Assembly: GCF_000092845.1 (NCBI RefSeq)
Contig: NC_014150.1
Location: 2,043,510 to 2,107,509 of the forward strand
DNA: 64,000 nucleotides
Direction of reading: 5' to 3'
DNA from: Brachyspira murdochii DSM 12563
GTDB taxonomy: Bacteria; Spirochaetota; Brachyspiria; Brachyspirales; Brachyspiraceae
Notes under the pieces: generated by a model
What the model saw: only the letters and a program-made list of their open reading frames with translations
What the model was told of the DNA's origin: nothing
Database searches by the model: none
Shown here: positions 3,804 through 49,872 of the stretch, piece by piece
How positions within the stretch are numbered: position 1 is the first letter of the stretch
How the letters are laid out: every line of letters starts with the position of its first letter
Program-made: the position numbers and the translations under genes

Positions 3804-3884
3804 TTTTAAATAAAAAATAAATATAAACTTTTAAAAAAGGCTTACTAATTTAATAGCAAGCCTTTTTATTAAAAATATTATTTT

Positions 3885-6800
3885 TTATTGTCCGTTATTC
3901 ATAGAAGCTAAATACTGCATTATCTGAAGTCTTCTGCTTTCTACATCTTTGTCCAAATTAGCTATAACATCATTAGTTGCTGCTAAAGGCGACATTACTC
4001 TTTTGAAGTCATTATATATATTTAAAGCCTCTATAACTTTGTTTTGTTCTATATATATATGACCTATAGCATATAAGGCAAAAGCACCGTCCTGATTAAG
4101 CTCATTAGTGTATTTAGAATATGTACTTACAGCTTCATCATACATTTTACTGTTGAGATATATATTAGCTAAATCAAATTCAAGTCCTGTTCTTTCGTCT
4201 TTAGTTAAATCTCTCATTTTAAGAGTATCAATTAATGTATTTATAGAACTCGCAGTGTCTCCTATGTTAGCATATAGTATTGATATATCTTTATTAACAG
4301 CTACCATATGCTCTCTTGTTCTTGCTCTTTTTCTAGCCTCTAATTTTGCCCATAGAGTTTCTTCTATATCCTGTCTGTTTTGATATATATAATTAGCATA
4401 AGAAGAATAGCTTTCAAAAGTATCTTCTTTCACAGCCTGAGCTTTAAGATTATCAGCCTGCTGTCTTGTAGTTTTAAGCTGTGCATCTATTCTAGCAATA
4501 AATTGTTTTATCTGCTGATAAGTTTGATTCTGCTCTCTTGCCGCATCTCCCATATCTTTTCCTCTGTGGAAAGTTTTTTCTGCTCTGGTAAGCACATCTT
4601 TGGCTTTATTTAAATACTCTGCCTCTTTATCATAAGGGGTATCTTTTGAGCGTGCCAAATATTCATAAGAAGCAGCTAAGTTAAAATAAGCAGGATAAAT
4701 AAGTTTTTCTAATTTTATAAGCTCTTCAAACATTAAAGCCGCTCTTTCATAATTGCCGTCCATAATAGCCTGATTGCCCACAGCAAAGTATACATTAGAC
4801 ATATCAAAACCTATAGTAAGCATTCTTTCTTCTTCCTGCTTTTTTAAGTCCTGAAACTCTGCTATTTTTTGATTAGCTTCATCTCTTGTAATGCCGTTTT
4901 TAGCAATGTCTCCATTACCCATAAAGCCTAAAAGTTTTTGATACATTTTTATTTTTCTGTTATACATATCTATTTTAGCAAGAGAATATGAACTTACAAA
5001 TATCTCTCTTGTTAAGAAATCATAATGAGAAATCTCTTCAGCAGTTCCCTGCATAGTATAGCTGTTCCAGTAATCTTCTTCCGTTTTAAACTCTGGGAAA
5101 GGAAGCTCATACATTTTTACGAAAGTTATCTCTTCGTTTCCGTCATAAATATTTTTTCTTGCTGCTGAAATTAAGCCTTCATCTAATAATGCATTTAAAT
5201 CTGCTGCTATTTTTTCATTCTCATAATCTCTTTTTAAATGCTCTTTAGCAATATCTTTATAGTCATTAACAGTAAGTACCTTAAAGAACTCTAATTCATC
5301 AACTAAAGCATATTTAATAGGCTGAACTTTGAATACTAAACCATAAGCCTTGAAGTAGTAATCACCAAGCCTGTAAAGTCCGTCTCGTCTCCAAGCCATA
5401 TAATAAGGTCTGCCAGACTCTATAAAGTCTTTATCAACGGCATCGCTTATATCTCCTAGCCATCTGCCGTCTGTTTTCATAAGGTTTCCGTATATTCTTT
5501 CAAATACATTACCCTTTTGGTCATATATTTTTAAATCTGGTCTTCTTCTTTCAACCATAGTGTAATATACAAGTCCGAATACTTGGTTGTCTCCTCCTTC
5601 TGTAGCAAATATTGCATTATCTGGAAGAGAGTTCATCATATTGTATGAATAGTCATGGTTGCTAAAATCTTTTGAGTTATTATTACGGCTTAGATTCATT
5701 ACAAATATAGGAATCATTATTGCAAATATTGCTATAAGTGATATTGCATGATAAGGTTTTAATGTGGTATCTGCACTTTCTTCTTTAGAAGGTTTTAATA
5801 CATTTTTTATATTAGTATTAAAATATTCCATATACCATTGAAAACCAAAGCCTATTATCACAAGCATATATAAAGTTGCTGGAAGGAAGAATACTTCTAC
5901 AAATGATAAAGTTCTAACACTTGGAGGCGGATTAGTATATGCCATAAGTGATACGGCAAAACTTAAAAGCCCAAATACTGAGAATATACCTATAAATTTA
6001 TTTTTCTTAAATATTTGAAATAGTCCCGGTATTAAGAACAGTAATCCTAATACTGTCAATTGAGTTTTGAATATATTTATCAAAGCAGATACTTGTTCTG
6101 GGTGAAGTATGAATGCTGCAGCAACATCGTTTCCAGAAGTACCGTACTGTTTTCTATGTATCATACTAAATAAATAGCTTAAATTTTCCCAGCCTGAAGG
6201 TTCATTTAATTGTCCCCAGTTTAGAGGAGGCAAAGCTCTTGCTCTTATAGGCATGTACGCATATATCATAACGCCTACTGCAAGCATTAAAAGCATTTTA
6301 TAATATGATATTGATATGCCTGTTATAAAATCATTATCATTATTAAATTTATCTATTTTGCACAAGAAATATCTATATACTAAGCACCAAACAACTACTA
6401 AAAATAAAGGCCAGAATACTAAAAACATTCCCTTGTATAGAGTAGGGTAGAATGGAGCTTTAAGATTCTGTATCATATCTGGTCTTAAATAAGAACCGTT
6501 TGCAAGTGCTGTAAATATATCGCTCATTATATTCATATCAGCAAAAGGCTTAAATATTATAGAGAATATTGAATCATTAGAAGCTACCCCCGGAGGAAAA
6601 TATAAATAAGCCTCATAATTCATAATAAATCTATAGTATCCGAAACCGCCTATAAATAATAATACCAAAAATACGAATATTGATATAAAAGAAGTTTCTA
6701 TATGATTAATGTATCTGTCTTTATGAACCAAAAATAAAACTATTGCTATAAACAAAAGCGGAGCAAAAGCAAAAGGTAAAGTTACATGGTGATTTGCAAG

Positions 6801-8871: not shown

Positions 8872-10101
8872 ATGAAAAAAATTATTTATTTATTTATGGT
8901 ATTTTTGACAATTGTCAATTTTTGGGGATGTGCTAAAAATAACAATGTTACTGCTCCTTCTTCAAGTATTAAAAAAACTGAAATTTCGTTTTCATATTTA
9001 GATGATCAATATCAAATTTCAGAAAATAAAACCGATAATATTCTCATGAAAACAAAAGATATAGCAGAAAATTTTTCTTTAATATCAAAAAAAACAGGAG
9101 AAAACGAATATACTGCTATAATAACTGATGAACAAAATAATATATCTGTTGCTATGGTATATAAAGATAATAAAGAATTTCCAGATCATATTTCTTTTTC
9201 TAAAGATGATAATTTAATTAGAGGTACAGCTTCAGATCATGTTAATGGGGCATTTGATGTATTGTGGAGTATGAATGGTATGGAAGAAGTTTTTTATAAT
9301 ATTAAATTATCTGATGATATATATAATTATAATAATATTTCTTCTTTAGATTCAAAAGAAAATTATCATGCTAAAACTCTAATTATAAGTTTAAAAATAT
9401 GGGATGCTATTAATAATTATGTTCAGGATAGTAATAATCAGCCTAAAGGAAGATTTTTCTTTTTTATTTTTGGAATAATAGCAGCAGTTGCCGCAGCAAC
9501 AGCTGCAACAGTAGCCACATTCGTTACAGCATTAGTAGTAACAGCTGTAGTATTAACTATAGGAGCAATAGTATCTACTCCAGTTGTTCCGCCAGCAATA
9601 AAACCAGATCCTGAAAACCCTACTTCATATCCTGATATTTCTACTTTTAATGTATTATATAATGGGGAAAAAATAGATAATAATACTACATTTACAATAG
9701 ATTATGATACAGGAGAGATAAATGTGAGAAAATCAGTTATGTTAAATCCTGAGTATTATAAGAATGCAAGACTAACTTTAAATCTATCTCATTCTGGGGC
9801 TAAAAACTCTAATAATGAATTAGAAGTTTTTGTAAAAATGGATGGAAATCATGGAGATCCTATTTCATTAATAAATGCTTATTATAATTTTTTTATGAAT
9901 GAGGAGCAAATTGGTTTTAGTAAAGATAATGAATATAAAATAGCGGATTTAGGATTCTCAAAAAGTAATTATATGAAATTGGATATAGTTAAAAAAAATA
10001 AAACTCCTGATAATTTTAATAATTTAATTTTAAAATTTGTATTTACAAATGTAAAAAGATTTGGTAAAATTGGAAAAGAATTTAAAATTCAAATAAATTA
10101 G
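8872..10101 (+). CDS. putative lipoprotein with an internal Ala/Val/Thr-rich hydrophobic segment
   Basis: MKKIIYLFMVFLTIVNFWGC has a lipobox-like Cys. The ATG at 8872 is preferred over the ORF-track start at 8812 because of the signal peptide. An ATTGACAAAAAA box sits upstream at ~8813. The internal stretch AAVAAATAATVATFVTALVVTAVVLTIGAIV is probably a TM segment. Confidence 0.45.
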   Translation: MKKIIYLFMVFLTIVNFWGCAKNNNVTAPSSSIKKTEISFSYLDDQYQISENKTDNILMKTKDIAENFSLISKKTGENEYTAIITDEQNNISVAMVYKDNKEFPDHISFSKDDNLIRGTASDHVNGAFDVLWSMNGMEEVFYNIKLSDDIYNYNNISSLDSKENYHAKTLIISLKIWDAINNYVQDSNNQPKGRFFFFIFGIIAAVAAATAATVATFVTALVVTAVVLTIGAIVSTPVVPPAIKPDPENPTSYPDISTFNVLYNGEKIDNNTTFTIDYDTGEINVRKSVMLNPEYYKNARLTLNLSHSGAKNSNNELEVFVKMDGNHGDPISLINAYYNFFMNEEQIGFSKDNEYKIADLGFSKSNYMKLDIVKKNKTPDNFNNLILKFVFTNVKRFGKIGKEFKIQIN

Positions 10102-37860: not shown

Positions 37861-38238
37861 TTATTTGTTTTTTAATATATTGCCCTTTGTATCTATAATA
37901 ACAATATTATTATCAATTTCTATTTCATATTTGTTTTTCTTTTTTATTATTCTGTATATAGTAAAGTTATCATATTTTTCTTTTATAGTATTTATAACTT
38001 CTTTTTCTATAATATTATCTTCAGCAAGTTTTTCTATTATACTGAATGCTATTTCATTACCGTTTCCTATAATAGAAGTCCATTCGCCTCTTGAAGTAAA
38101 GTTTACAGAACTTCCGCCTTTAAATACAACGCTGTATGATGAAGTAAATGTTGTCTTAAAAACATAATAGTCATTAAAATATGTTTCTATAAAGTTTTTT
38201 ACTTTTTCTGGAAGTTTTTGATATGGTATAATATCCAT
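37861..38238 (-). CDS. small PepSY-like/DUF2874-like protein (paralog 1)
   Basis: 125 aa. The stretch IPYQKLPEKVKNFIETYFNDYYVFKTTFTSSYSVVFKGGSSVNF is paralogous to 38506-38955. Confidence 0.4.
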   Translation of the reverse strand: MDIIPYQKLPEKVKNFIETYFNDYYVFKTTFTSSYSVVFKGGSSVNFTSRGEWTSIIGNGNEIAFSIIEKLAEDNIIEKEVINTIKEKYDNFTIYRIIKKKNKYEIEIDNNIVIIDTKGNILKNK

Positions 38239-38258
38239 AATTGTAATCTAATAATTTA

Positions 38259-38398
38259 TTTGCTAATTTCGCTTTTTTCTTTTTCTATCATATCTTCTAA
38301 ATATGCTTTTAAGAAAATATAATTATGAGCATCATCAAGATTTTGATTATTTTCAATTTTTTTATTTAAAAATTCAACTAATTCTTCTTTTGTTTTCA
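38259..38398 (-). CDS. possible micro-ORF (46 aa), MKTKEELVEFLNKKIENNQNLDDAHNYIFLKAYLEDMIEKEKKAKLANK
   Basis: Read by hand from the reverse complement between the two PepSY-like genes. It is below the ORF-track length cutoff and no ribosome-binding site was checked. Confidence 0.2.
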
Positions 38399-38505
38399 TG
38401 ATAATATCCTTTGATAGTTTAGTTATTTTTAAACCTTATAATATTATTTTTAGTATGTCAATATATGCATTTAGTTTATTGATAAGTTAATTTTCTTTTA
38501 AATTT

Positions 38506-38955
38506 TTAGGCTTTTTTTATTTTTATAATATTGCCTTCATAGTCTATATAAATATATTCTTTATCATCTGCCTTAAACTCTATTCCTTTTCTTCTTTTAT
38601 ATATATTATTAATAGTTTTATATTTTGATTTAATTATATTTATTATTTTATAGTCAATAAACTTTTCTGCGGTGCTAATATCTATTGTTTGTCTGTTTCC
38701 TATTACAGAAATCCATTGACCTTTTCTATTAAAGTTAATTGATGAGCCTCCTTCAAAAATTACGGTATATTTTGAAGAAACTGATGCTCTATACACTTTA
38801 TAGTCTTTAAAGTATTTATTTACAAACTCTTGAATATTTATGGGTAAAGAAGTGTATGGTATAAAGTTAATATTTCTATCATCATCATAAAATATAAAAG
38901 AAGAAGATACTATATATATAAAAATTAAATAAACATAAAATACATTTCTCTGCAT
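38506..38955 (-). CDS. PepSY-like/DUF2874-like protein with signal anchor (paralog 2)
   Basis: 149 aa. It contains IPYTSLPINIQEFVNKYFKDYKVYRASVSSKYTVIFEGGSSINF. Confidence 0.4.
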   Translation of the reverse strand: MQRNVFYVYLIFIYIVSSSFIFYDDDRNINFIPYTSLPINIQEFVNKYFKDYKVYRASVSSKYTVIFEGGSSINFNRKGQWISVIGNRQTIDISTAEKFIDYKIINIIKSKYKTINNIYKRRKGIEFKADDKEYIYIDYEGNIIKIKKA

Positions 38956-39047
38956 AAAAATATATCCTTAAATTTATACTTAAATGATATAGTAAAATAT
39001 AAATATTTCAATACTAAATAAAAAAGTAAATTTTCGTACTTTATCTA

Positions 39048-39075
39048 TTGACAAAATAATAAACATGCATATAAT
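39048..39075 (+). promoter_or_regulatory. sigma70 promoter TTGACA-N16-TATAAT
   Basis: aTTGACAaaataataaacatgcaTATAATa. It lies upstream of the MATE gene. Confidence 0.5.
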
Positions 39076-39126
39076 ACACATCTTGTATATAGTACGAAAG
39101 AAGACTATTTTAAAAAGGAGTTTATC

Positions 39127-40470
39127 ATGATTAATATGACACAAAATACTAAAAACATGGAAAAATCTTTTTTTAAGTATGTTTTGCCTGCAATAGCCTC
39201 TACTATGCTTGGAGGACTTTATATAGTTGTTGACGGTTTTTTCGTAGGAAATTCTATGGGGGATAATGGGCTTACCGCTATTAATTTGGTTTATCCAATA
39301 GGTACTTTGATTGCCGCATGTGCTGTTATGCTTGGCATGGGAGGCTCTGTTATAATGTCTACATATTTTGGAGGAGGAGATAGCAAAGGTTTTAATAAAG
39401 CTAAATCAAATACTTTTATTACTTTAATACTTGCAAGTGTTATATTAACTGTTATTTTGCTTTTATTAAAGAATAAATTAATATATCTTCTAGGTGCTAG
39501 AGATAATGTATTTAAACTTGCTGATGAATATATTACGGTTATAATATTAGGAGGAAGTTTTCAGATAATATCATACGGGATCATGCCTATGATAAGAAAT
39601 TTAGGAAAAACCATTCATGCAATGGCATTTATGGTAGCAGGGCTTATAACAAATATTATACTTGACTATTTATTTTTAATGGTTTTAAGATTAGGAATGT
39701 TTGGAGCTGCACTTGCTACAATAATAGCTGAAGGCATTGTTGCTTTGATATCTCTATATTATTTATTTATAAGAAAAAAATATAGAATAAAATTATCAGA
39801 CTTTGACTTATCAATGACTAAAAGAGCAATTCAAATAGGACTTTCGCCTTTTGGCTTGGTTATGGCACCCTCTTTGATAGTGATATTTAATAATTGGCAG
39901 TGTATAAAGTACGGAGGATATACAGCAGCTTCTGCATATTCGGTTATAAACTATATATACGGCTCTGTTATATATTTATTTGAAGGTATTGCTGAGGGCT
40001 GTCAGCCTATGATAAGCTATTTTAAAGGTGCTAAAAGAAATGATCTTATGAAAAAAGTATTTAAAAAAGGAGTATTATTTGCATTGATAATTGCCTCAAT
40101 TATTTTAAGTATAATTTTAATATTTAAAAATAATTTTGGTATTTTATTCGGTGCTTCTATAGAAACTAATGATATTATAAGCAAAGGATTAATTTTAATA
40201 TCTGTATCATTCATACTTCAGCCTATAGTAAGATTAGGAACAGCTTATTTTTATTCTTCGGGTGAAAGCAGATATTCGGCACTTTTAACTTATATAGATC
40301 CTTTATTCGTAAGTCCTTTATGTATATTAGTACTTCCTTTGTTTTTTAATCTTGACGGAGTATGGCTTGCATTGCCTTTTTCACAGTTTATATTAATTGT
40401 ATTATTTATATTTATTTTCTATAATACAAATATAAAAGATAAAGATTTTATAAAAAAGACAGTATATTAA
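39127..40470 (+). CDS. MATE family efflux transporter
   Basis: 447 aa with 12 predicted TM helices and the MATE N-terminal pattern KYVLPAIASTMLGGLYIVVDGFFVGN. Confidence 0.8.
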   Translation: MINMTQNTKNMEKSFFKYVLPAIASTMLGGLYIVVDGFFVGNSMGDNGLTAINLVYPIGTLIAACAVMLGMGGSVIMSTYFGGGDSKGFNKAKSNTFITLILASVILTVILLLLKNKLIYLLGARDNVFKLADEYITVIILGGSFQIISYGIMPMIRNLGKTIHAMAFMVAGLITNIILDYLFLMVLRLGMFGAALATIIAEGIVALISLYYLFIRKKYRIKLSDFDLSMTKRAIQIGLSPFGLVMAPSLIVIFNNWQCIKYGGYTAASAYSVINYIYGSVIYLFEGIAEGCQPMISYFKGAKRNDLMKKVFKKGVLFALIIASIILSIILIFKNNFGILFGASIETNDIISKGLILISVSFILQPIVRLGTAYFYSSGESRYSALLTYIDPLFVSPLCILVLPLFFNLDGVWLALPFSQFILIVLFIFIFYNTNIKDKDFIKKTVY

Positions 40471-40550
40471 AATAAATAGTTATAAGATAAATTAAAGATA
40501 TGGGCTTTAAATAATATAAAGATTAATTATTATTTAAAGCCTATAATTTT

Positions 40551-41528
40551 TTAAAAAATTACTGAAGATATAAACATAGATATAAGTTTTATTATTATCA
40601 ATAGGGCTAATGAAAATACAGCAGAAGTTAATATAAACTTATTAGCTTTTTCTATATGGCTTATTTTTAGATCTTCTAAATATTCACCTACTAAAGGTCT
40701 GTCGTACATTTCACCATCTTTTATATATTCTCCTCCAAGCTCTATATTGAGTGCTCCTGCAACACTTGCTTCCAATCTTGCTTTATTATTTTTTCCGTCT
40801 CTTTTTAATGCTGTAAAGGCATTTTTATATTCATATCTTAATATTCTTGATGTTATAATATGAACAATAGATGTAAAGAAAGAAGGTATTATATTTAATA
40901 TATAGCATAGTTTTATATTAAATATTCCAAATATATCATCGCTTTTATTTTCATCTATATATACAGTGTCTGAAGAACTTTCAGATAATTTATAAATGGT
41001 TTTATACGCTATACAAAGAGGAGCTCCTCCCAAAAGTAAAAATATTGCAGGATATATATAATCTTCAGCAATGCTTATTACAGTATATTCAATAGTATTT
41101 TTAATAATCTGTTCTTCTTCAATATCTTCTGTATCTATATCAGTATTTTCTTTGAGCAGAGATTTTGCCTTTTTTATATCATTATTTTTTAAGCTATGAT
41201 ATATACGAGAGCTAATCTCTAGCGGCTTTCTAATGCCCAATGTAATATAACATAATGCCAATTCTATTATCAAGCCTAAAAGAAAATGAACTTTGTATAA
41301 AAGCATTAAAAGAAAAAAAGGTATTAAAAAACATACGGCTATGATTATTAAAGAGGATAATGTTCCTACAGCAAATGGAAGTATATTATTTTTATTATTT
41401 ACTTTTTTTCTAAATAAATCTTCAGCTATAAAATGAAGTCTTGATACAAATACAAAAGGATCAAATTTTACATTTTTAATAAATATATTTAGAAGAAAAG
41501 ATATAGGTAATATTAAAAGTATTTTCAT
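40551..41528 (-). CDS. cobD: adenosylcobinamide-phosphate synthase CobD/CbiB
   Basis: The segment NTIEYTVISIAEDYIYPAIFLLLGGAPLCIAYKTIYKL matches the CbiB core, and AGALNIELGGEYIKDGEMYDRPLVG matches its C-terminal motif. It is a multi-TM protein. Confidence 0.6.
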   Translation of the reverse strand: MKILLILPISFLLNIFIKNVKFDPFVFVSRLHFIAEDLFRKKVNNKNNILPFAVGTLSSLIIIAVCFLIPFFLLMLLYKVHFLLGLIIELALCYITLGIRKPLEISSRIYHSLKNNDIKKAKSLLKENTDIDTEDIEEEQIIKNTIEYTVISIAEDYIYPAIFLLLGGAPLCIAYKTIYKLSESSSDTVYIDENKSDDIFGIFNIKLCYILNIIPSFFTSIVHIITSRILRYEYKNAFTALKRDGKNNKARLEASVAGALNIELGGEYIKDGEMYDRPLVGEYLEDLKISHIEKANKFILTSAVFSLALLIIIKLISMFISSVIF

Positions 41529-41575
41529 GTTAATTTATTCCAAATTAAAAGTTATTACTAATAATCATCGTAAAA

Positions 41576-42160
41576 TTAGAACTTTTCTATAATATTTATA
41601 TTATTTTTATCATCTATTTCTGTATAATAACCGCATCCGTTTTGTAAAAGATATTCATAGAAGCCTAATTTCTGAGTATCAAATATGCTGAATATAGACA
41701 TAATAACACCCCCATGACTTACTACAGAAGTATAATCCATGTTATTTTTTTTCATATCTTCTATAATATATAGATATGCTTTTTCTGTTCTGCTAAAGAA
41801 ATTTTCGGAAGTTTCTCCATTAGGTACATTGCTTTTCCAATTAGTTCTAAAAAACTCTTTATAATAAGGATTATCTTTTAATTCATCATGATTTTTTCCT
41901 TCAAAATCTCCGAAACTTCTTTCTCTCAAATCATTTAACACTTCTTTTGTCATATCATTAAAGTATATATCAGCAGTTTCCAAGCATCTTTTAAGAGGAC
42001 TGCAGTATAATTTTTGAACTGGTTTATATTTTTCTATAATGCTTTTTTTGTTTATAAGAAAATTTTTTCCAGCTTCAGATAATGGAGCATCAGTAGAGCC
42101 TAGCCATCTTCCTTCAGCATTTAATTTTGTTTGCCCATGACGTATAAATAGTATTTTCAT
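41576..42160 (-). CDS. cobC: histidine phosphatase family protein, probable alpha-ribazole phosphatase
   Basis: The N-terminal RHG catalytic motif (MKILFIRHGQT). It is adjacent to cobD. Confidence 0.5.
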   Translation of the reverse strand: MKILFIRHGQTKLNAEGRWLGSTDAPLSEAGKNFLINKKSIIEKYKPVQKLYCSPLKRCLETADIYFNDMTKEVLNDLRERSFGDFEGKNHDELKDNPYYKEFFRTNWKSNVPNGETSENFFSRTEKAYLYIIEDMKKNNMDYTSVVSHGGVIMSIFSIFDTQKLGFYEYLLQNGCGYYTEIDDKNNINIIEKF

Positions 42161-42195
42161 AATGATTACTCCATTTAAAAATTAATTTGTTCAGC

Positions 42196-42238
42196 GTTTA
42201 AGTTTACATTATAATAGCAGTTTATTTTTTTTCAATAA
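42196..42238. repeat. 43-bp direct repeat, copy 1 (GTTTAAGTTTACATTATAATAGCAGTTTATTTTTTTTCAATAA)
   Basis: Identical apart from one T in the T-run to 44282-44323. The reverse complement carries TTGAAA-N16-TATAAT, a plausible cobC promoter. Confidence 0.7.
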
Positions 42239-42304
42239 CATTATTATATTATTTTTATAACTTATAAAATTATGTAAAAATAGTATGCAGGTGTATAAAT
42301 ATTA

Positions 42305-42333
42305 TTGACAAATATAGTTATAGAATATAGAAT
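42305..42333 (+). promoter_or_regulatory. sigma70 promoter TTGACA-N17-TAGAAT
   Basis: aTTGACAaatatagttatagaataTAGAATg. The predicted transcription start lies ~25 nt before the pentanucleotide array. Confidence 0.5.
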
Positions 42334-42363
42334 GTGAGAACTATAATTTGGGCATGTTTATGA

Positions 42364-42482
42364 ACAACACAACACAACACAACACAACACAACACAACAC
42401 AACACAACACAACACAACACAACACAACACAACACAACACAACACAACACAACACAACACAACACAACACAACACAACACAA
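42364..42482. repeat. perfect pentanucleotide microsatellite (ACAAC)23 plus a partial unit
   Basis: Units counted by hand from 42364 to 42478 with no interruption. The ORF-track frame 42348-42617 reads it as eight NTTQH units. Confidence 0.95.
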
Positions 42483-42642
42483 TTATCTAATCTAATATTT
42501 CTATTTTTCAATAAAATCAATATTTACTTTTTAGCTATAAAAACATATTCCCATAATGTTATCTTTATTAATATAAAAAAACACTATTTATTAATATCTT
42601 ATATGAAAAATAATTAATATAAATATTGTAGGAGAATGAATT

Positions 42643-44151
42643 ATGAAAAAACTATTATCTATTATTTTATTGATTACAAGCATTTTATCTCTATCCTGTA
42701 ATCATAATAAGTTAAACTCTTCATTAACTAGTTCTATTGGTAAAGTTGGTGAAATAACAGTTAATCCGCTTGGGGTTACACCATTATCGGCAGTTTATAC
42801 AACAGAAACTGTAAATGCTGCCCCTATAACAGTAACAGTTAAAGGTTTATATGGAGAGCCAGACATAATACACACTTATCCAGCAGGTTATGGTACTGAA
42901 TTTGAAATACATGGTATGTTTCCAGAGTCGCAAAATACTATTGAAGTAAATGATGGCGGAAGGATTATAACTAAAAATATTAATATTGGAAGTTTATCTA
43001 CAAGTGATAATACAACTATACAAAAACAGTACAATGTGGAAATTAATGAACTTTCTGAAGAAAAATATACTAATAATCCTGAACTCTATTTTATTATAAA
43101 TGCTACTTTCCCATTTCATATAGCAATATCAAAGAATGGTTATACAAGATATTTACAGAGTGGTTTAAGAGGATCAAAGTTGGTAATTGAAAATAAAAAA
43201 ATTGTATTATATCCTATGTATGATTATAAAAATACTGATTTATTAGGAAACATATTAATAAATTATCCAACTCAAGTTCATCATGATGTTATAAAGGTTA
43301 ATAACAATTATCTTTATTTATCATATTCAACTTGGGGATCAGAGGATAGATTAGTAGAAATAGATAGTTCTGGTAAAAAGTTAAGAGAATTAAGTTTTGG
43401 AAAATTAATACAAAATACTTTAGATTTAAATACTTATAAAGAAGATGAAGCAATATTCAAACAAATAGTATTTGGAGAAGATGTAAATAATATTTATGTA
43501 GATAGCAGTGGACAGAAACAAGCTGTAGATTGGTTCCATGCCAATTCCATAGTTTATGATTCTAGTACTGATACATTATATGTTTCTTCAAGAACTAGAG
43601 GAGTATTTGCTATAGATTATAGTGAATGGAAATTAATTTGGTGGATGGCTGATGATGCATTATCTTCAGGTATTGTAAATGATACTCATTTAAATAAATT
43701 AGCTTCTTTAGGTCCCTATAGAGTAAAAGGTGCAGGAAAAGATGACGGACCAAAAAATCAGCATGCTTTATTTTTGTTTGCTAATGGTAATTTAGGTATG
43801 TTTGATAATCAAGGAAATCAAGCTATTAACCCTAATGGTTCAAGATATGTTGAGTATACAATAACAGGTACTCATGGTAATTATACAGCTCAAAAAGTTT
43901 ATGAGTATAGAGATAGTTCTTTATATTCACAAATTATGTCAGATGTTGATTTTATAGGAGAAAATTATCAAAATTTATTATTAACATATTCATGGCAAAC
44001 TGCTAGGATTGTTGAAGCAGAAAAGAATACTAAGAGTGTATTATTTAGATTGGATTTACCATTTGAGACATATAGAGTAGATAAATTACCTTTGTATTAT
44101 GATGAAGGAAGGGTTTATTCAGAAGACTGCAACTTGAAAAATCCTAATTAA
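42643..44151 (+). CDS. lipoprotein, arylsulfotransferase (ASST)-like beta-propeller family
   Basis: Signal peptide plus Cys (LSLSC). QVHHDV and DWFHANSIVYDSSTDTLYVSSRTRGVFAIDYSEWKLIWW resemble ASST family motifs. An AGGAGA ribosome-binding site precedes the start. Confidence 0.45.
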   Translation: MKKLLSIILLITSILSLSCNHNKLNSSLTSSIGKVGEITVNPLGVTPLSAVYTTETVNAAPITVTVKGLYGEPDIIHTYPAGYGTEFEIHGMFPESQNTIEVNDGGRIITKNINIGSLSTSDNTTIQKQYNVEINELSEEKYTNNPELYFIINATFPFHIAISKNGYTRYLQSGLRGSKLVIENKKIVLYPMYDYKNTDLLGNILINYPTQVHHDVIKVNNNYLYLSYSTWGSEDRLVEIDSSGKKLRELSFGKLIQNTLDLNTYKEDEAIFKQIVFGEDVNNIYVDSSGQKQAVDWFHANSIVYDSSTDTLYVSSRTRGVFAIDYSEWKLIWWMADDALSSGIVNDTHLNKLASLGPYRVKGAGKDDGPKNQHALFLFANGNLGMFDNQGNQAINPNGSRYVEYTITGTHGNYTAQKVYEYRDSSLYSQIMSDVDFIGENYQNLLLTYSWQTARIVEAEKNTKSVLFRLDLPFETYRVDKLPLYYDEGRVYSEDCNLKNPN

Positions 44152-44281
44152 TTCTAATCTAACAAATGAAATAAAGTCTTGATTACAGTAATGTAGTTGA
44201 GCCTTTTTATTTCATTTTTAATATTATTGTACGATTAAATTTTTGTAATGAATATTCCATTTTTTAATTAGTTTCTTTAGT

Positions 44282-44323
44282 GTTTAAGTTTACATTATAA
44301 TAGCAGTTTATTTTTTTCAATAA
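44282..44323. repeat. 43-bp direct repeat, copy 2
   Basis: GTTTAAGTTTACATTATAATAGCAGTTTATTTTTTTCAATAA. Together with copy 1 it brackets the promoter-microsatellite-lipoprotein cassette. Confidence 0.7.
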
Positions 44324-44426
44324 AATAATGTAATTTTTTAAATTTGGTATTTTACACTTAAAATATATTATTTTTAAAAAAGTTCAATATAGGTACGGTA
44401 TGTATTAAAAATACTGTAAAAAATAA

Positions 44427-44455
44427 TTGACAATTTATGTAATTTGTGTTATAAT
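44427..44455 (+). promoter_or_regulatory. consensus sigma70 promoter TTGACA-N17-TATAAT
   Basis: aTTGACAatttatgtaatttgtgtTATAATc. It lies upstream of hppA. Confidence 0.55.
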
Positions 44456-44496
44456 CCAAAACTGTAAAATTTTCACCAAAATTTAAAAAATAGGGT

Positions 44497-46899
44497 ATGT
44501 GTATGAATTATGAAATATTAGCTGAAAATGCCCGCTTCTTTACAATATCAGCGGCAATACTCACATTGGCTTTCGCATTCTATTTTTATAAATGGATGCG
44601 TAAACAGGACGAAGGTAATGAAACTATGAAAGAAATAGCTTCGCATGTACGCTCCGGTGCTATAGCTTATCTTAAACAACAGTATAAAGTTATAGCTTTC
44701 TTTTTTGCAGGAGCTTTCATTATTTTTGCTGTTCTTTCTTATGCATTAAAAGTGCAAAACCCTTTCATTCCTATAGGTTTTTTAACAGGCGGTTTCTTCT
44801 CAACTCTTTCTGGTTTCTTGGGTATGAAAACTGCTACTTATGCATCTGCTAGAACTGCTAATGCAGCAAGCAAATCATTAAACGAAGGTTTAACAATAGC
44901 TTTCCGTTCAGGTGCTGTTATGGGACTTACTGTTGTAGGTCTTGCTTTGTTTGACATCTCTTTATGGTTTATAGTGTTAAATTTATGGCTTGATAATAGT
45001 CTTTTCGGTACAGACTTCCTTAATTTGGCTGCTACTGGAATAACTAAAGGTACTGCTGAATACACTGCTGCTAAAATGCACTTTGTAACTACTACAATGC
45101 TTAGCTTTGGTGTAGGTGCTTCTTTCCAAGCATTGTTTGCACGTGTCGGAGGCGGTATATTTACTAAAGCTGCTGACGTTGGTGCTGACTTAGTTGGTAA
45201 AGTAGAAGCTGGAATACCTGAAGATGACCCTAGAAACCCTGCTGTTATAGCTGACAACGTAGGCGATAACGTAGGTGACGTTGCTGGTATGGGTGCCGAC
45301 CTTTATGAATCTTATGCAGGTTCTATACTTGCTGCTATGAGTTTGGGTTCTGCTGCTTTCGGATATATTAATCCTGATGTAAGCCCAATATTTGCTGTAT
45401 CGCTCCCTATGATACTTGCTGCTATTGGTACTCTTTCTTCTATTATAGGTGTATTCTTCGTTAAAACTAAAGAAGGTGCTACTATGGGAGAATTATTAAA
45501 ATCTTTAAGAGTTGGTGTTTATGTAAGCAGTGCTATTATTATAGTTGTTTCTTTCCTACTTGTAAAAGCACTTCTTCCAAACAATTTGGGATTATTTGTT
45601 TCTATCATTGTAGGGCTTATAGCTGGTAATGTAGTTGGTTTCTTCACAGAATACTATACAGCTGCTGAATACAAACCTACTCAATGGGTAGCTGAACAAT
45701 CTAAAACTGGTCCTGCTACTGTTATTATAGGCGGACTTGCTGTAGGTATGCAGTCTACTTTGATACCTGTTGTTACAGTTGTTATCTCTATAATGTTGGC
45801 ATTTGGTTTTGCTGGCGGTTTCGGTGCTGAAGCTTCTTCTTTCTCTCAAGGTTTATATGGTATTGCTTTGGCTTCTGTTGGTATGTTATCTACTTTAGGT
45901 ATCACATTAGCTACTGATGCTTATGGTCCTATAGCTGACAATGCAGGCGGTAATGCTGAAATGTCTGGTCTTCCAGAAAGTGTTAGAGAAAGAACTGATG
46001 CTTTAGACTCTTTAGGCAACACTACTGCTGCTACTGGTAAAGGTTTTGCTATATGTTCTGCTGCTTTAACTGCTATGGCTTTGATTGCTGCTTATATTGA
46101 GGAAATTAAAACTTCTTTGGGAAGAATGATTAATTCTGGAAATCTTACTTCTATAGATATAGGTACTGTTCAATATACTGCTAACAGTGCTAAGGAATTA
46201 TATGACAAAGTTGTTTATAGTTTGGGTATGAATGAGTTTATGAATGCTTTCAATATTCACTTGATGAACCCTAAAGTATTAATAGGTATATTTATTGGTG
46301 CTATGTTAGTATTCTTCTTCTGTGCTTTAACTATGAAAGCTGTTGGACGTGCTGCTGCAGGCGTTGTAGAAGAAGTTAGAAGACAGTTTAGAGAAATTAA
46401 AGGCTTACTTGCTGGTGAAAAAGGTGTAAAAGCTGATTATGAAAAAGCTGTTCAAATCTGTACTAAATCAGCTCAAAAAGAGATGATTGTTCCTTCTGTA
46501 CTTGCTATAATAGTACCTGTTGTAGTTGGTTTCTTATTCGGAGTACCTGCTGTTATAGGTATGTTGGTAGGCGGTTTGACTGCCGGATTTGCTATGGCTG
46601 TTATGATGTCTAATGCTGGCGGTGCTTGGGATAATGCTAAAAAATACATTGAAGCTGGTAATTTGGGCGGTAAAAAAATCATAGATCCAAAAACTGGAGA
46701 AAAAATTACTAACCCTAACCATGCTGCTGCTGTTATAGGTGATACCGTTGGTGACCCATTCAAAGATACTTCCGGACCTTCAATCAACATTCTTATCAAA
46801 TTAATGAGCTTGATAAGTGTTGTATTTGCTGGTGCAATAGTAGCTTTCTCACCAAAAATTCAGGCTCTATTAGGTATAGCTGATCAAATTATTAAATAA
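44497..46899 (+). CDS. hppA: membrane-bound H+/Na+-translocating pyrophosphatase
   Basis: 800 aa with 15-16 TM helices and the signature GGGIFTKAADVGADLVGKVE...DNVGDNVGDVAGMGADL. Confidence 0.9.
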   Translation: MCMNYEILAENARFFTISAAILTLAFAFYFYKWMRKQDEGNETMKEIASHVRSGAIAYLKQQYKVIAFFFAGAFIIFAVLSYALKVQNPFIPIGFLTGGFFSTLSGFLGMKTATYASARTANAASKSLNEGLTIAFRSGAVMGLTVVGLALFDISLWFIVLNLWLDNSLFGTDFLNLAATGITKGTAEYTAAKMHFVTTTMLSFGVGASFQALFARVGGGIFTKAADVGADLVGKVEAGIPEDDPRNPAVIADNVGDNVGDVAGMGADLYESYAGSILAAMSLGSAAFGYINPDVSPIFAVSLPMILAAIGTLSSIIGVFFVKTKEGATMGELLKSLRVGVYVSSAIIIVVSFLLVKALLPNNLGLFVSIIVGLIAGNVVGFFTEYYTAAEYKPTQWVAEQSKTGPATVIIGGLAVGMQSTLIPVVTVVISIMLAFGFAGGFGAEASSFSQGLYGIALASVGMLSTLGITLATDAYGPIADNAGGNAEMSGLPESVRERTDALDSLGNTTAATGKGFAICSAALTAMALIAAYIEEIKTSLGRMINSGNLTSIDIGTVQYTANSAKELYDKVVYSLGMNEFMNAFNIHLMNPKVLIGIFIGAMLVFFFCALTMKAVGRAAAGVVEEVRRQFREIKGLLAGEKGVKADYEKAVQICTKSAQKEMIVPSVLAIIVPVVVGFLFGVPAVIGMLVGGLTAGFAMAVMMSNAGGAWDNAKKYIEAGNLGGKKIIDPKTGEKITNPNHAAAVIGDTVGDPFKDTSGPSINILIKLMSLISVVFAGAIVAFSPKIQALLGIADQIIK

Positions 46900-46924
46900 T
46901 AACTTTATTTAATATTAAATATAT

Positions 46925-46961
46925 AAGCTGTCTGACTTTAATTAGTTGGGCAGCTTTTTTT
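46925..46961 (+). terminator. weak terminator-like hairpin after hppA
   Basis: AAGCTG (20-nt loop) CAGCTT is followed by TTTTTTGTTTT. Confidence 0.3.
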
Positions 46962-47043
46962 GTTTTAATTATTATTGTGTTTGAAGTAATTTACAATATC
47001 CATTTTATTTTGTTATTTTAAATGTTGCTACTTTGGATTTATT

Positions 47044-47799
47044 ATGAAGTTTATAAAATATTTTTTATTTGTAAACATTTTAATTATAACTATTACATAT
47101 ACTGCTTTTGCTAGTTTAGAGATAAATTTTCAAGGACATTATGGAATTGTTTTTCCGTTTAATTCTATAAAAGTAAATGATAATTATAAGAACACTATTT
47201 ATGACAGTGTTGATGGTACTTTATGTTTTGAAGGAACTTTGTTTTTACAAATAGGAAATTATTTTAAATTATTTGAAGATGATTATACAAGCATTATTAA
47301 AGGTGTGAGTTTATTTGGAGATATTGGTTTTAGTATTAATGCTTTGATGTCTGATTATAAAGAGAATAATAATAAATATATGGAACTTATGGCATTCTAT
47401 TCTATAATGGTTGGAGCAGCTGTTAAATTAAATTTCAGTAAAATGTCTATAGGATTTGGTACAGGAATAATAGCTCCTTTATATGCTGTTGTTTCTTCAA
47501 GTAAATATGGCGGGGTTATGTCAGCACCTAATGATTTAGATAATTGGAATGTTAATGATATGAGAAATCTTTTTAAAGCTCCTATAATGCCTTACATAAA
47601 ACTTACTGTTGAAGGATTTATATATTTAGTTCCTAATTTTGCCGTTACTCTTGGAGGCTATATGATGTATAATTTTGGTATGCAGTACAAAACTGATGTT
47701 GTTAATAGCAATTTAGGCAACAATATATATAATAAATATAATTTTTCTTCTCTTTCTATAGGATTAGTTTTGGGTATATCTTTGGGCAGATATAATTGA
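47044..47799 (+). CDS. hypothetical secreted/outer-membrane-like protein, paralog of 10113-10964
   Basis: 251 aa with a hydrophobic leader and shared motifs (see 10113-10964). Confidence 0.4.
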   Translation: MKFIKYFLFVNILIITITYTAFASLEINFQGHYGIVFPFNSIKVNDNYKNTIYDSVDGTLCFEGTLFLQIGNYFKLFEDDYTSIIKGVSLFGDIGFSINALMSDYKENNNKYMELMAFYSIMVGAAVKLNFSKMSIGFGTGIIAPLYAVVSSSKYGGVMSAPNDLDNWNVNDMRNLFKAPIMPYIKLTVEGFIYLVPNFAVTLGGYMMYNFGMQYKTDVVNSNLGNNIYNKYNFSSLSIGLVLGISLGRYN

Positions 47800-48039
47800 T
47801 ATATTCACACTCTTATTTTAGTTTTTATATGAAATTATTAAAAAAAATTTACTTTATACGCTATAAAAGTAAAAAAAATATGTTTTTATTTGACTTTATA
47901 TGATTATAATTTATAATATACTTCTGAAATAATCAAAAAGTATTCATTTCTATTTAGAATATTATTTCAACTATTTTTTAATTCTATTAATAATTATTAT
48001 TAATTTTTTATAAAAATTAGATATTGGAAAGGAAAATCT

Positions 48040-49872
48040 ATGAAAAAAATTCATTCTATAAGAGTGAAAATGCCTATAGCAATTAGTATTTTAAGTACTA
48101 TATTTTTAGTTTTAATAGTTGTCATATTATCATACAGATCTCATATTACAATTAAAAATGCCACATTGAATGGTTTTAATAATACAGTTAATGGCTATAA
48201 AGATATGCTTGATGTTTGGCTTGATGATAGCAGGAATTTAATAGAAACTTATTCGGTATCTCCTATAGTAAGAAATTACCTATTAGATAGAAATATAGAT
48301 ATTCGAAGTACACTTACAGAGTTTGAAGGTATTAATGAATATGTGCTTGACATAGGTATTACAGATACTAATGGTATAATTTTAGATAATGTTAATAATG
48401 TAAAAATAGGTGAAAATATAACAACAGTAAGACCTAATATTTTAAATATATTAAAAAACAATAATAATAAAGCCTCTTTTGATGATGGTATACAAAGATC
48501 AAGTGCTGATAACAAATGGTCGCTTGCAGCTATTTCTGGTGTTAATTATAATGGGGAATATATAGGAAATATATATATGATATTAGATTGGGAGGAGCTT
48601 TCTGTAAAACTTCAGGATTTGAAATTACCTGAAAGAACTAGAATATTTGCCATTGATGATGAAGAGACTGTTTTACTTGACACCAAAAACGAAATTAATA
48701 CGAAAGCAAATGAAGCTTATGGAGAAATTATAAATAGCGGTTTATCATCAGGTGTTATGAATTATATATCTTCCGTAAGTCATGATCCTAGAACAGCAGT
48801 TTACAGCAGACTTCAAAATTTATCTTGGTATTTAATTATGGCTATGGACGATAATATTATATATAAAGATAATAATGATTCTATAAAAATATCTATTATT
48901 ATATGTATTTTATCTATTATTTTTATAAATATATTTGCTTTTATTTATATTAAAAGAGTTACACACCCTCTAAAAGTATTAATGAGTCATGCCACTAGCA
49001 TATCAGAGGGAAATATTAGTATAAATACTAAAAGTACATATGCTAAAGATGAGTTTGGAGAATTAGAGAGGGTTTTTGATATTATGAGCAGCAGGTTGGC
49101 AGAGGTTGTTTATAATGTTAATAATGCCTCAAAAGAGATAATGGAAGCAGCAGAAAATATGATGGAAAGCAGCAGCGAATTATCAGCAAGAACGGACAGT
49201 CAGTCATCTAGTTTGGAAGAAACAGCAGCTAGTATTGAGGAGATGGTTTCTAATATAAAGATTTCAGCTGAGAACTCTATACATGGTAAGGATATGATGT
49301 CAGAGTCTATTACATTCATTGAAGATGCTGCAAACATTATATCTCAAACTGCTTCAAATATAGAAGAGGTTTATCAGTCAAGTGAGAAAATAAAAGATAT
49401 TACAAAGATTATTGAAGATATTGCTTTTCAAACTAATATACTTGCACTTAATGCTTCTGTAGAGGCGGCACGTGCTGGAGATCATGGTAAAGGTTTTGCT
49501 GTTGTTGCTTCTGAGGTAAGAAATCTTGCTCAAACTACTCAGGCTTCTGTAAAAGATATCACAGCATTGGTTGATAATACATCAAGTAAAATAGATATAG
49601 CAACTAATACCGCTAAACAGTCGCAGGATATATTTGCAAAACTTCAAAGCAAAGTATTAGAAACTTCAAAACTAATGGAAGATATTACTTCAAATGCCCT
49701 AGAACAGCAGTCTGGAACTAATCAAATAAGTACCGAAGTTAATAATATGGAAACTGCCACTACTCAGAATGCTGCTTTGGCTGAAAACTCAAGTGAGATA
49801 TCAAAAAGTTTGGTTGAAAAAGCTAGATTTTTAGAAAGCAGTATAGAGTTTTTTAAGATTTCTAATAATTAG
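48040..49872 (+). CDS. methyl-accepting chemotaxis protein with Cache-type sensor (paralog of 18140-20107)
   Basis: Two TM helices, a periplasmic domain, a HAMP domain and the signalling domain ...[32 protein letters not shown]... Confidence 0.9.

Follow-up and report, generated by a model that had tools for sequence, protein, structure and literature searches.

What does it mean that the same short sequence stands on both sides of a single gene? In the window, the 64,000-nt stretch of Brachyspira murdochii DNA analyzed here as a whole, a probable lipoprotein gene of the ASST family lies between a cobC-like histidine phosphatase gene and the pyrophosphatase gene hppA, and is bracketed by direct repeats (Table 1). 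The first-pass annotation, whose gene names agree with the Pfam matches (MatE, CobD, His_Phos_1, ASST and H_PPase across the neighborhood), had offered three explanations for these repeats: insertion of the segment with duplication of the cobC promoter, a substrate for RecA-mediated ON/OFF switching by deletion, or an antisense-RNA control layer. We favor the first, and consider it probable that the repeats are a working cobC promoter (copy 1) and a decaying relic of it (copy 2), that is, an insertion scar that most likely has no regulatory role today. By itself the repeat is an ordinary recombination footprint, and the locus that it marks could matter more than the scar.

Table 1. Features of the cobC-hppA locus (positions in the window)
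Feature	Position	Strand	Details
CobD/CbiB gene, adjoins cobC	40551-41528		PF03186
cobC-like histidine phosphatase gene, served by copy 1	41576..42160	-	ORF; His_Phos_1 PF00300, E 6e-33
Duplicated segment, copy 1: cobC start, RBS, 5′UTR, core promoter	42153..42241	-	
Copy 1 start codon	42158-42160		
Copy 1 RBS	42169-42172		GGAG
Copy 1 -10 box	42213-42208		TATAAT
Copy 1 -35 box	42235-42230		TTGAAA; spacer 16 nt
Left junction J1 and cassette 5′ end	42242..42304	+	J1 at about 42241/42242
Cassette's own promoter	42305..42333	+	TTGACA-17-TAGAAT; scan 11/12
Leader ORF	42360..42617	+	85 codons; (ACAAC)x23.8 at 42364-42482
ASST-family probable lipoprotein gene, cassette cargo	42643..44151	+	PF05935 and PF17425
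ASST terminator hairpin, then U-run	44164..44217	+	
Relic of cobC 5′ end, degenerate 5′UTR	44222..44281	-	
Repeat copy 2, relic cobC promoter	44282..44323	-	-10 at 44299-44294; -35 at 44320-44315
Rest of original cobC-hppA intergenic region	44324..44496	+	continues empty-site sequence
hppA promoter	44427-44455	+	TTGACA-17-TATAAT
hppA, membrane H+-pyrophosphatase, right neighbor	44497..46899	+	PF03030, E 5e-259

Sequence and extent of the direct repeat

The two near-identical copies described from the sequence, with their difference of one T, were confirmed as an exact 36-nt core, GTTTAAGTTTACATTATAATAGCAGTTTATTTTTTT, at 42196-42231 and 44282-44317. These are its two matches in the 64-kb window, with none further even at 3 mismatches, and the chance expectation in 100 dinucleotide shuffles is 0. 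Copy 1 closes with T8 followed by CAATAA (43 nt, ending at 42238), and copy 2 with T7 followed by CAATAA (42 nt, ending at 44323). The similarity extends leftwards, such that 42153-42231 and 44239-44317 are 86% identical without gaps and BLAST pairs the two regions over 104 columns at 84% identity. The 36-nt repeat is the core of a duplication of ~90-105 nt that includes the RBS and start codon of cobC, both of which are degenerate in copy 2 (ATG to ACA at 44244-44246, GGAG to GGAA at 44255-44258); this degenerate start had been overlooked in the first-pass annotation.

Read on the minus strand, copy 1 is GGAGTAATCATTATG and copy 2 is GGAATATTCATTACA. The proposed TTGAAA and TATAAT hexamers can be read in both, separated by 16 nt in copy 1 and, due to the T7 run, by 15 nt in copy 2. 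A promoter scan that accepts spacers of 16-18 nt gave copy 1 a score of 11/12 (TTGAAA-16-TATAAT), and copy 2 is missing from its output because a 15-nt spacer falls outside that range. The core is found upstream of cobC in all non-pilosicoli Brachyspira (at least 13 loci), and both this genus-wide conservation and its position fit the earlier proposal that copy 1 drives cobC.

Empty and occupied sites and the origin of the duplication

The first-pass annotation had suggested looking in relatives for a cobC-hppA region with a single repeat copy, and such empty sites exist. At seven loci (L004, L008, L011, L012, L013, L021 and L025, the last from B. pulli), hppA and cobC are separated by 197-275 bp containing one copy; in L025 the cobC adjacent to hppA is a relic of ~70 codons. 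On its left, the single copy at empty sites has the flank of copy 1, and on its right that of copy 2. B. intermedia DD32, B. alvinipulli and three MAGs have empty one-copy sites. The site is occupied in B. murdochii, B. innocens and one MAG, which carry both copies, and in B. hampsonii and sp. G79, which lack the second; in B. hampsonii the empty-site homology resumes ~15 nt or less from its left-junction end. Empty, simply occupied and occupied-plus-duplication forms are all found among relatives, making up a rare series of intermediates that leads from the empty site over simple insertion, long-relic duplication and short-relic duplication to loss of the relic.

At the left junction, which is identical in all occupied genomes, comparison of empty and occupied sequences shows where homology to the empty sites ends, and sequence common to an ASST paralog at another locus (L066) begins at ~42261. 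The right junction varies, falling near cobC codon 8 in B. murdochii, B. innocens and L007 and near codon 70 in B. pulli. Immediately past the ASST terminator, the hppA-side copy of B. pulli comprises promoter, RBS, ATG and ~70 codons of cobC, with the remainder of the real cobC on a separate contig. No donor for this relic was identified, as cobC 5′ regions match it at 86% nucleotide identity at best. In the non-pilosicoli set, the second copy of the core occurs only beside hppA and only in cassette-bearing genomes, and at the ASST paralog loci L066, L067 and L068 we found neither the core nor any flank duplication. Another paralog locus, L069, has a direct repeat. The repeated sequence belongs to the target, being the promoter and 5′ end of the neighboring gene, and not to the insert. 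Single-copy empty sites, matching flanks and a repeat made of host sequence support the view that a cassette was inserted with duplication of the cobC promoter. Within its 2 kb, the cassette brings together a promoter of its own, a leader ORF with the (ACAAC)n tract, the gene for the ASST lipoprotein and a terminator, and it occupies what is otherwise a divergent cobC/hppA control region of ~200-275 bp. The scar dates and maps the splicing of an accessory gene into a shared divergent promoter region, with neither neighbor disabled.

We infer that the duplicated form arose through one illegitimate join between an occupied chromosome and empty-type DNA. The breakpoints would lie just past the ASST terminator in the former and inside cobC in the latter, while the other end would have been joined by homologous recombination in hppA, an event of the class of homology-facilitated illegitimate recombination or a Campbell-type single crossover. 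A Brachyspira gene transfer agent is a plausible source of the DNA; natural transformability is not known for Brachyspira, and transfer would take place through a gene transfer agent of the VSH-1 type. End states do not prove which way the change went, whether the cassette was gained by insertion or lost when the copies recombined. The empty state of the site is likely ancestral, given that the outgroup lineages in a cobC+cobD tree are empty. An ASST cassette also lies directly upstream of hppA in B. pilosicoli, and occupation of the site could therefore be old. A metagenome scan with cobC returned only pilosicoli/aalborgi-like loci, at 66-69% identity and without hppA synteny.

The locus shares with insertion-duplication by illegitimate recombination a repeat that is host rather than element sequence, found as direct copies to either side of the insert, as well as a duplication length that varies by event (here about 60, about 105 and >300 nt) and a lack of mobility genes. 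It differs in that donor and recipient are deduced from end states and in that the duplicated piece is a complete promoter plus gene start. Other origins were rejected. A target-site duplication left by a transposon or IS is at odds with a length of 60 to >300 nt that depends on the lineage, with ends that lack inverted repeats and with ASST as the sole ORF of the cassette. An integrase island with att sites is at odds with neighbors that include no integrase or recombinase and with the absence of tRNA genes in 38000-49000. Overall, no transposase, integrase, tRNA or terminal inverted repeats were found at the cassette. Duplication of the whole intergenic region, which would make the cassette promoter a diverged hppA promoter, was rejected as well, since a profile of the cassette promoters finds no hppA promoter. 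Local alignment of the two promoters was marginal, being matched by 6 of 500 shuffles for the window and 27 of 500 for L009, and was not significant for L007. Some resemblance between cassette and hppA promoters can be seen (GGGCATGTTTATGAA and GGGTATGTGTATGAA), and L005 looks like a hybrid.

Decay of copy 2 and its possible roles

An orthologous cobC relic is present in L064, L065 and L007, and the relic left of the core varies and is poorly conserved. The T7 run of the window recurs in the independent assembly L064, whereas L063, L065 and L007 have T8; L007 carries a mutated -10 box, TACAAT, and B. hampsonii and sp. G79 have lost copy 2 while retaining the ASST gene. As part of the insertion-scar reading, decay would have proceeded through destruction of the start codon and RBS and loss of one spacer T in the window, mutation of the -10 box in L007 and loss of the entire copy in two species.

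In the window, the 36-nt core shows 0 substitutions between the copies, compared with ~10 differences in the neighboring 40 nt. By a rough Poisson estimate such a core is unlikely in a purely neutral relic (P about 0.01), and copy 2 has thus been either constrained or converted. Strain L063 has a run of 59 nt in copy 2 that equals its own copy 1, including a strain-specific base, and the copy 2 of the window differs at 5 positions across that stretch; gene conversion from copy 1 to copy 2 is therefore indicated, and would occasionally refresh the relic. Constraint, for its part, would be expected if copy 2 were kept as far-upstream control DNA of hppA, either a regulator site or an A/T-tract element, such that only insertions duplicating the cobC promoter left both genes fully equipped. 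In addition to the substitution-free core, the near invariance of the stretch from the core of copy 2 to the hppA ATG among B. murdochii, B. innocens and L007, next to a variable relic on its left, is consistent with such a function. However, B. hampsonii and sp. G79 have a normal hppA promoter in spite of lacking copy 2, and the divergence between the window and L007 is similar in this block (about 4%) and in hppA itself (5.4%), which linkage to a slowly evolving gene would explain without any special constraint. We consider a role of copy 2 in hppA control quite improbable.

Could copy 2 instead be a live leftward promoter, making a cis-antisense RNA to the 3′ end of the ASST mRNA or acting by transcriptional interference? 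Its TTGAAA and TATAAT are both intact in the window, and its core is identical to that of a promoter certainly in use. The ASST terminator hairpin is weaker on the minus strand (-9.6 kcal/mol, z -2.4) than on the plus strand (-18.7 kcal/mol, z -3.7), which makes read-through conceivable. The spacer of 15 nt is nevertheless suboptimal and outside the range of the scan, the transcribed relic is poorly conserved, and no Rfam-type RNA family was matched in 41000-45000 at E ≤ 1. Copy 2 has no gene to drive behind it and a hairpin in front. A small peptide encoded behind it was also considered and rejected: the ORF of 17 codons lacks an RBS, and B. innocens has lost the ATG. Mutation or loss of copy 2 in relatives that have the ASST gene leaves the proposed antisense-RNA layer unsupported, and we judge a live antisense promoter very improbable.

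A further role would involve both copies: as att-like direct repeats they would recombine, deleting the ASST cassette (OFF) and leaving one copy, with the cassette regained via a gene transfer agent. The junction expected from such excision has the form cobC-5′UTR/core/AATAATGTAATTTTTT and the sequence TTGTTCAGCGTTTAAGTTTACATTATAATAGCAGTTTATTTTTTT(T)CAATAAAATAATGTAATTTTTT, joined to cobC at its left and to hppA at its right. Empty sites are known that have just a single copy, the B. intermedia-like clade has both states (L006 occupied, L004 empty, 93% identity in cobC/cobD), and the conversion in L063 shows that the copies interact. The geometry is also that of the wzy locus of Salmonella Typhimurium, where perfect direct repeats of 113 bp enclose 2.6 kb and one copy remains in deletion strains, which were found in culture as well as within one clade (PMC12074656). 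Both loci have a surface-structure gene in a segment of ~2-2.6 kb between housekeeping genes, bracketed by direct repeats, and gene-less variants that retain exactly one repeat; here, in contrast, the identity is limited to 36 nt, copy 2 undergoes decay in relatives, and no deletion variants were found within species, the B. murdochii and B. innocens assemblies examined and the Logan contigs all being consistent with two copies. A change between occupied and empty sites is seen only among genomes that are further apart. The 36 identical nucleotides are near the minimum length for RecA-dependent recombination. Moreover, no empty allele was found in the murdochii/innocens/G79/L007 clade, deletion is not reversible without re-import of the cassette, and the cassette already has a candidate for a reversible switch in its microsatellite. 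The loss of copy 2 in two species that kept the cassette indicates that the pair is not maintained. RecA-mediated ON/OFF switching by deletion is possible, yet we regard an excision switch with regain as unlikely. Taken as an insertion scar, the 36-nt core would be a short stretch of homology through which the cassette could, on rare occasions, be lost precisely and irreversibly.

The cassette as a variable locus

The microsatellite had been assigned to the promoter by the first-pass annotation, but the tract sits inside the leader ORF instead. The cassette also has its own genus-wide promoter and leader, and an ASST allele that is swapped between strains, all of which had been overlooked. When seven cassette promoters were combined into an nhmmer profile, it recovered that of the B. 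pilosicoli cassette (E 3.8e-6). In the window, the ASST product is 100% identical to the B. murdochii protein P0001, and a lipoprotein-type signal peptide, MKKLLSIILLITSILSLSC, can be read from its sequence.

Between loci, the (ACAAC) tract varies from 3 copies to about 24 or more. The leader ORF is open in 7/7 loci compared, and its stop lies 25 nt ahead of the ASST ATG; among the loci with a complete tract (n=5), 3 are in frame and 2 out of frame. A hypervariable tract at a frame-setting position is what marks simple-sequence contingency loci, and its length may affect ASST expression, making it a candidate switch only. Since the tract is in a separate upstream ORF, any effect would be exerted via translational coupling, RBS unmasking or polarity. 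The opa genes of Neisseria, a contingency locus, carry a pentameric CTCTT repeat in the region coding for the leader peptide. As in opa, a coding, strain-variable pentanucleotide tract at the 5′ end of a surface-protein locus sets the frame; unlike in opa, the tract belongs to a separate ORF that ends before the ASST start.

The contents of the site vary as well. It is either empty or filled with ASST alleles of 63-74% identity or, in L009, with an unrelated gene of two ORFs that sits at the same junction, and the ASST coding segment is replaced at the level of strains. A mosaic pattern suggests exchange by homologous recombination in the flanks. Conserved flanks, alternative contents and a lack of mobility genes liken the site to the minimal mobile elements of Neisseria, which occupy a fixed site between conserved genes, have strain-variable contents and lack transposition functions. 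The fixed site is shared, here being empty or holding one of several ASST alleles or the L009 gene; the difference is that minimal mobile elements are not defined by direct repeats at their flanks.

The cassette looks like an undescribed switchable, fast-evolving locus. A full-text literature search found no paper on simple-sequence switching in Brachyspira and none that pairs Brachyspira with arylsulfotransferase; among the matches listed, papers on phase variation and repeats that name Brachyspira mention the genus at most twice each, and neither title nor abstract marks any of them as a Brachyspira study. A stronger version, in which a hypervariable surface ASST lipoprotein is governed by a two-layer contingency locus, an (ACAAC)n leader-frame switch combined with att-like cassette loss and regain by gene transfer agent, we hold to be doubtful. 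In its first layer, translation of the leader to 25 nt before the ASST start would act through coupling or RBS unmasking to switch the gene on or off; in its second, the promoter copies would be att-like, allowing precise cassette loss and re-acquisition through the gene transfer agent, as for Salmonella wzy. Brachyspira are intestinal spirochetes of pigs, poultry and humans, and if a portable promoter, a frame-setting tract and allele replacement do act together, the locus would be a candidate for immune evasion or adaptation to host substrates.

Folding of the leader RNA as a single sequence was not better than that of shuffles (z +0.33), and the alignment fold showed almost no covariation. 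A possible UUCC...GGAG pairing in the leader was noted as a lead.

The direct repeats flanking the ASST cassette

The repeated sequence GTTTAAGTTTACATTATAATAGCAGTTTATTTTTTT (36 nt) occurs exactly at 42196-42231, on the cobC side (copy 1), and at 44282-44317, on the hppA side (copy 2). These are the only two matches in the window with up to three mismatches allowed, and shuffled sequence gave none. Counted with the next T and CAATAA, copy 1 spans 43 nt (T8) and copy 2 spans 42 nt (T7), so that the first-pass annotation of two copies differing by one T is borne out by direct reading, with similarity reaching further left: 42153-42231 and 44239-44317 align ungapped at 86%, and BLAST of the duplicated segment gave 84% over 104 columns. 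The left part of copy 1 consists of the cobC start codon (CAT on the plus strand, 42158-42160), ribosome binding site (RBS) and 5′UTR; at the corresponding positions on the minus strand, copy 2 reads ACA for the start codon and GGAA for the RBS, indicating that copy 2 is a copy of the cobC promoter followed by a dead cobC start. We regard the repeat as probably a scar of recombination in which the promoter and the start of cobC were duplicated, and it most likely plays no regulatory role today.

Features of the cobC-hppA region (window positions)
Feature	Position	Strand	Remarks
MatE	39127-40470	+	
cobD/cbiB	40551-41528	-	
His_Phos_1 cobC-like gene	41576-42160	-	
Copy 1	42196-42238		cobC side
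Promoter TTGACA-17-TAGAAT	42305-42333		between copy 1 and ASST; promoter scan
Leader ORF	42360-42617		85 codons; ATG at 42360; contains the tract
(ACAAC)x23.8 tract	42364-42482		between copy 1 and ASST
ASST-family gene	42643-44151	+	lipoprotein-type signal peptide
Hairpin, then U-run	44164-44217		3′ of ASST; -18.7 kcal/mol, z -3.7
Copy 2	44282-44323		hppA side
hppA	44497-46899	+	

Several features of copy 2 are marks of a relic. The window and L064, an independent B. murdochii assembly, both have a 15-nt spacer in it, versus 16 nt in copy 1, which is why the promoter scan lists copy 1 (11/12) and not copy 2. No coding sequence lies behind it, and a transcript starting there would run into the ASST hairpin from its antisense side about 70 nt downstream (-9.6 kcal/mol, then UUUGUU). 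Across genomes, its -10 box is changed in the metagenome-assembled genome (MAG) L007, and the whole copy is absent in two species. Pure neutrality is complicated by two observations: the copies show no substitution across the 36-nt core, against about 10 over the neighboring 40 nt (P ~0.01 by our own rough estimate), and B. murdochii, B. innocens and L007 have almost the same sequence in the block that runs from the core up to hppA. The first is explained by gene conversion between copies, as seen in the B. murdochii assembly L063, where a 59-nt stretch of copy 2, down to a C peculiar to this strain, is the same as the strain's copy 1; over that stretch, the copy 2 of the window differs at five positions. 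The second may be explained by linkage to the slowly evolving hppA, as the window and L007 differ by ~4% in the block and by 5.4% in hppA itself.

Occupancy of the site and origin of the duplication

A cobC scan of species-representative genomes yielded 25 Brachyspira-clade loci, and tBLASTn mapping together with inspection of intergenic sequences revealed five states. The empty site with a single repeat, for which the first-pass annotation had proposed looking in relatives, was found in B. intermedia DD32, two B. alvinipulli genomes and three MAGs, with an hppA-cobC gap of 197-275 bp; left of the single copy lies the left flank of copy 1 (cobC RBS), and right of it (AATGTAATTTTTT...) the right flank of copy 2. 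Occupied sites with both copies are present in the window, two more B. murdochii assemblies (L055 with L064; L063), B. innocens (L001 with L065) and L007. B. hampsonii 30446 and sp. G79 are occupied and lack a recognizable second copy; in B. hampsonii, empty-site homology returns at most ~15 nt from where it stops at the left junction. In B. pulli, the ASST terminator is followed directly by a ~70-codon cobC fragment with intact ATG, RBS and promoter, then by hppA; the rest of the real cobC lies on another contig, and its sequence differs from that of the fragment. Finally, at the MAG locus L009 the same left junction is followed by another pair of genes, without Pfam matches, downstream of a promoter of the same type. 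By fuzzy search, all non-pilosicoli genomes have the 28-nt promoter core upstream of cobC, and a second core was found only beside hppA and only in genomes with both copies; in B. pulli the single match is the hppA-side copy. In a neighbor-joining tree of cobC and cobD, the outgroup lineages are empty, the murdochii/innocens/G79/L007 clade is entirely occupied, and the B. intermedia-like clade includes both conditions.

Some of these loci have further peculiarities. In B. pulli BB22 (L025, 10001-10225; L022, 1-60), the ~70 cobC codons at the hppA side appear intact, and the contig on which the true cobC continues differs in its flanking bases and has a read depth twice as high, so that the locus structure is provisional in this draft assembly. 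The unrelated gene of L009 (7524-10000) has ORFs of 143 and 549 aa with no Pfam match, and starts with ATGACAACCAACACAAC, similar to the first part of the repeat tract. Locus L005 (1-225) shows an empty-site junction and an hppA-type upstream motif, then a cassette-type promoter (TTGACAAATATATTAATAGAATATA) at which the contig ends; it is possibly a hybrid or an alternative insertion point.

The left junction (~42241|42242, five bases past the cobC -35 box) is identical in all occupied loci, even with other cargo. The right junction is variable, falling at about cobC codon 8 in the window and codon 70 in B. pulli, with none in B. hampsonii. We infer that the duplication arose by an illegitimate join of occupied and empty chromosomes: in the duplicated form, the left side would come from a simply occupied chromosome and the right side from an empty one, with the joint just past the terminator. 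Either homology-facilitated illegitimate recombination anchored in hppA or single-crossover (Campbell-type) integration would yield such a product, and the DNA could have traveled by the gene transfer agent that exists in Brachyspira (ref. 88 of PMC12074656). Insertion of a transposon or integrase type is ruled out because the duplication is long and variable and the required genes are missing: no tRNA, transposase or integrase was found around the cassette, nor inverted repeats at its ends.

Within B. murdochii and B. innocens, no empty allele was found among the assemblies and Logan contigs examined. Logan contigs encoding the identical ASST or cobC protein end at ...GCAGTTTAT, within the core, after the copy-2-specific relic in seven samples and after the copy-1-specific 5′UTR in six, a pattern expected of a repeat that exceeds the assembly k-mer; contigs running past copy 1 (L055, L062) continue into the cassette, not into the hppA flank. 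In mechanism, the repeat pair is closest to the flank duplications of insertion-duplication recombination. In geometry, the nearest case is wzy of Salmonella, which is lost precisely through 113-bp direct repeats (PMC12074656); wzy has deletion variants in its lineage, and none were found for the B. murdochii/B. innocens cassette in the assemblies and contigs examined. The cobC-hppA site itself resembles a Neisseria minimal mobile element in its behavior.

The leader ORF and replacement of ASST alleles

The cassette forms a unit, with conserved parts of its own. A profile built on its promoter region matches the B. pilosicoli counterpart (E 3.8e-6); there (CP098748.1, 2062-8089 of locus L068), hppA is directly preceded by two tandem ASST genes, beyond which lies YceG in place of cobC, showing that ASST-hppA adjacency is genus-wide. 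The second of these ASST genes shares the promoter and leader ORF of the cassette and has a CACAA/ACAAC tract of ~16-21 copies. An ASST paralogue at an unrelated locus of sp. G79 shares promoter start, leader end and terminator with the cassette. In this scaffold-level genome, both ASST loci have N runs exactly where promoter, tract and leader lie (L002, ~9400-9850; L066, ~3500-3960 and 5750-6300); these may be gaps that the tract caused in the assembly, or the collection may have masked the sequence.

The microsatellite of the first-pass annotation lies inside the leader ORF rather than in the promoter. The leader product consists of (NTTQH)n and a conserved hydrophobic tail, and where the tract is in frame the leader stops 24-26 nt ahead of the ASST ATG (25 nt in the window). 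After the tract, one frame is open in 7/7 loci compared, including the diverged B. pilosicoli (per-locus shuffle P 0.01-0.05). Among five loci with complete tracts, the ORF is in frame in three (window, B. hampsonii, B. pilosicoli) versus two out of frame (L063, L007). The tract is a candidate frame-setting phase switch that would act by translational coupling; it resembles opa-type pentamer switching, but lies within an upstream ORF. The conserved leader UUCCC (42546-42550) can pair with the ASST RBS AGGAG (42630-42634) in the predicted fold, which scores no better than shuffles and has almost no covariation. The leader also holds a third exact TTTTTCAATAAAAT (42504-42517). This string joins the -35 end of the repeat to the flank seen at empty sites, and a promoter-like site on the minus strand lies at 42511-42482; with up to one mismatch, TTTTTCAATAAAAT has four matches versus ~1 expected, and is too short to call.

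The ASST protein of the window is 100% identical to a B. murdochii protein on a 3.24-Mb contig. Compared with L064 (GCA_036997745.1), cobC/cobD are 99.9% identical, hppA ~100%, and the leader and first ~260 nt of ASST also ~100%, whereas ~42,900-44,210 (ASST propeller domain and terminator) shows only 32-87% identity, which indicates recent replacement of the ASST segment between B. murdochii strains, as read from these alignments. Other strains carry, at the same site, ASST alleles of 65-68% protein identity (65% in L063). The leader-ORF microsatellite and allele replacement merit attention of their own, the repeat itself less so. No paper in the literature searched pairs Brachyspira with arylsulfotransferase, and among the matches listed for Brachyspira with phase variation and repeats, none was a study of Brachyspira by title or abstract, and each named the genus no more than twice. 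Many ASST homologues are found on contigs of just 1.7-2.1 kb, suggesting that Brachyspira assemblies routinely break at the upstream repeat tract and at repeated sequence downstream of ASST genes.
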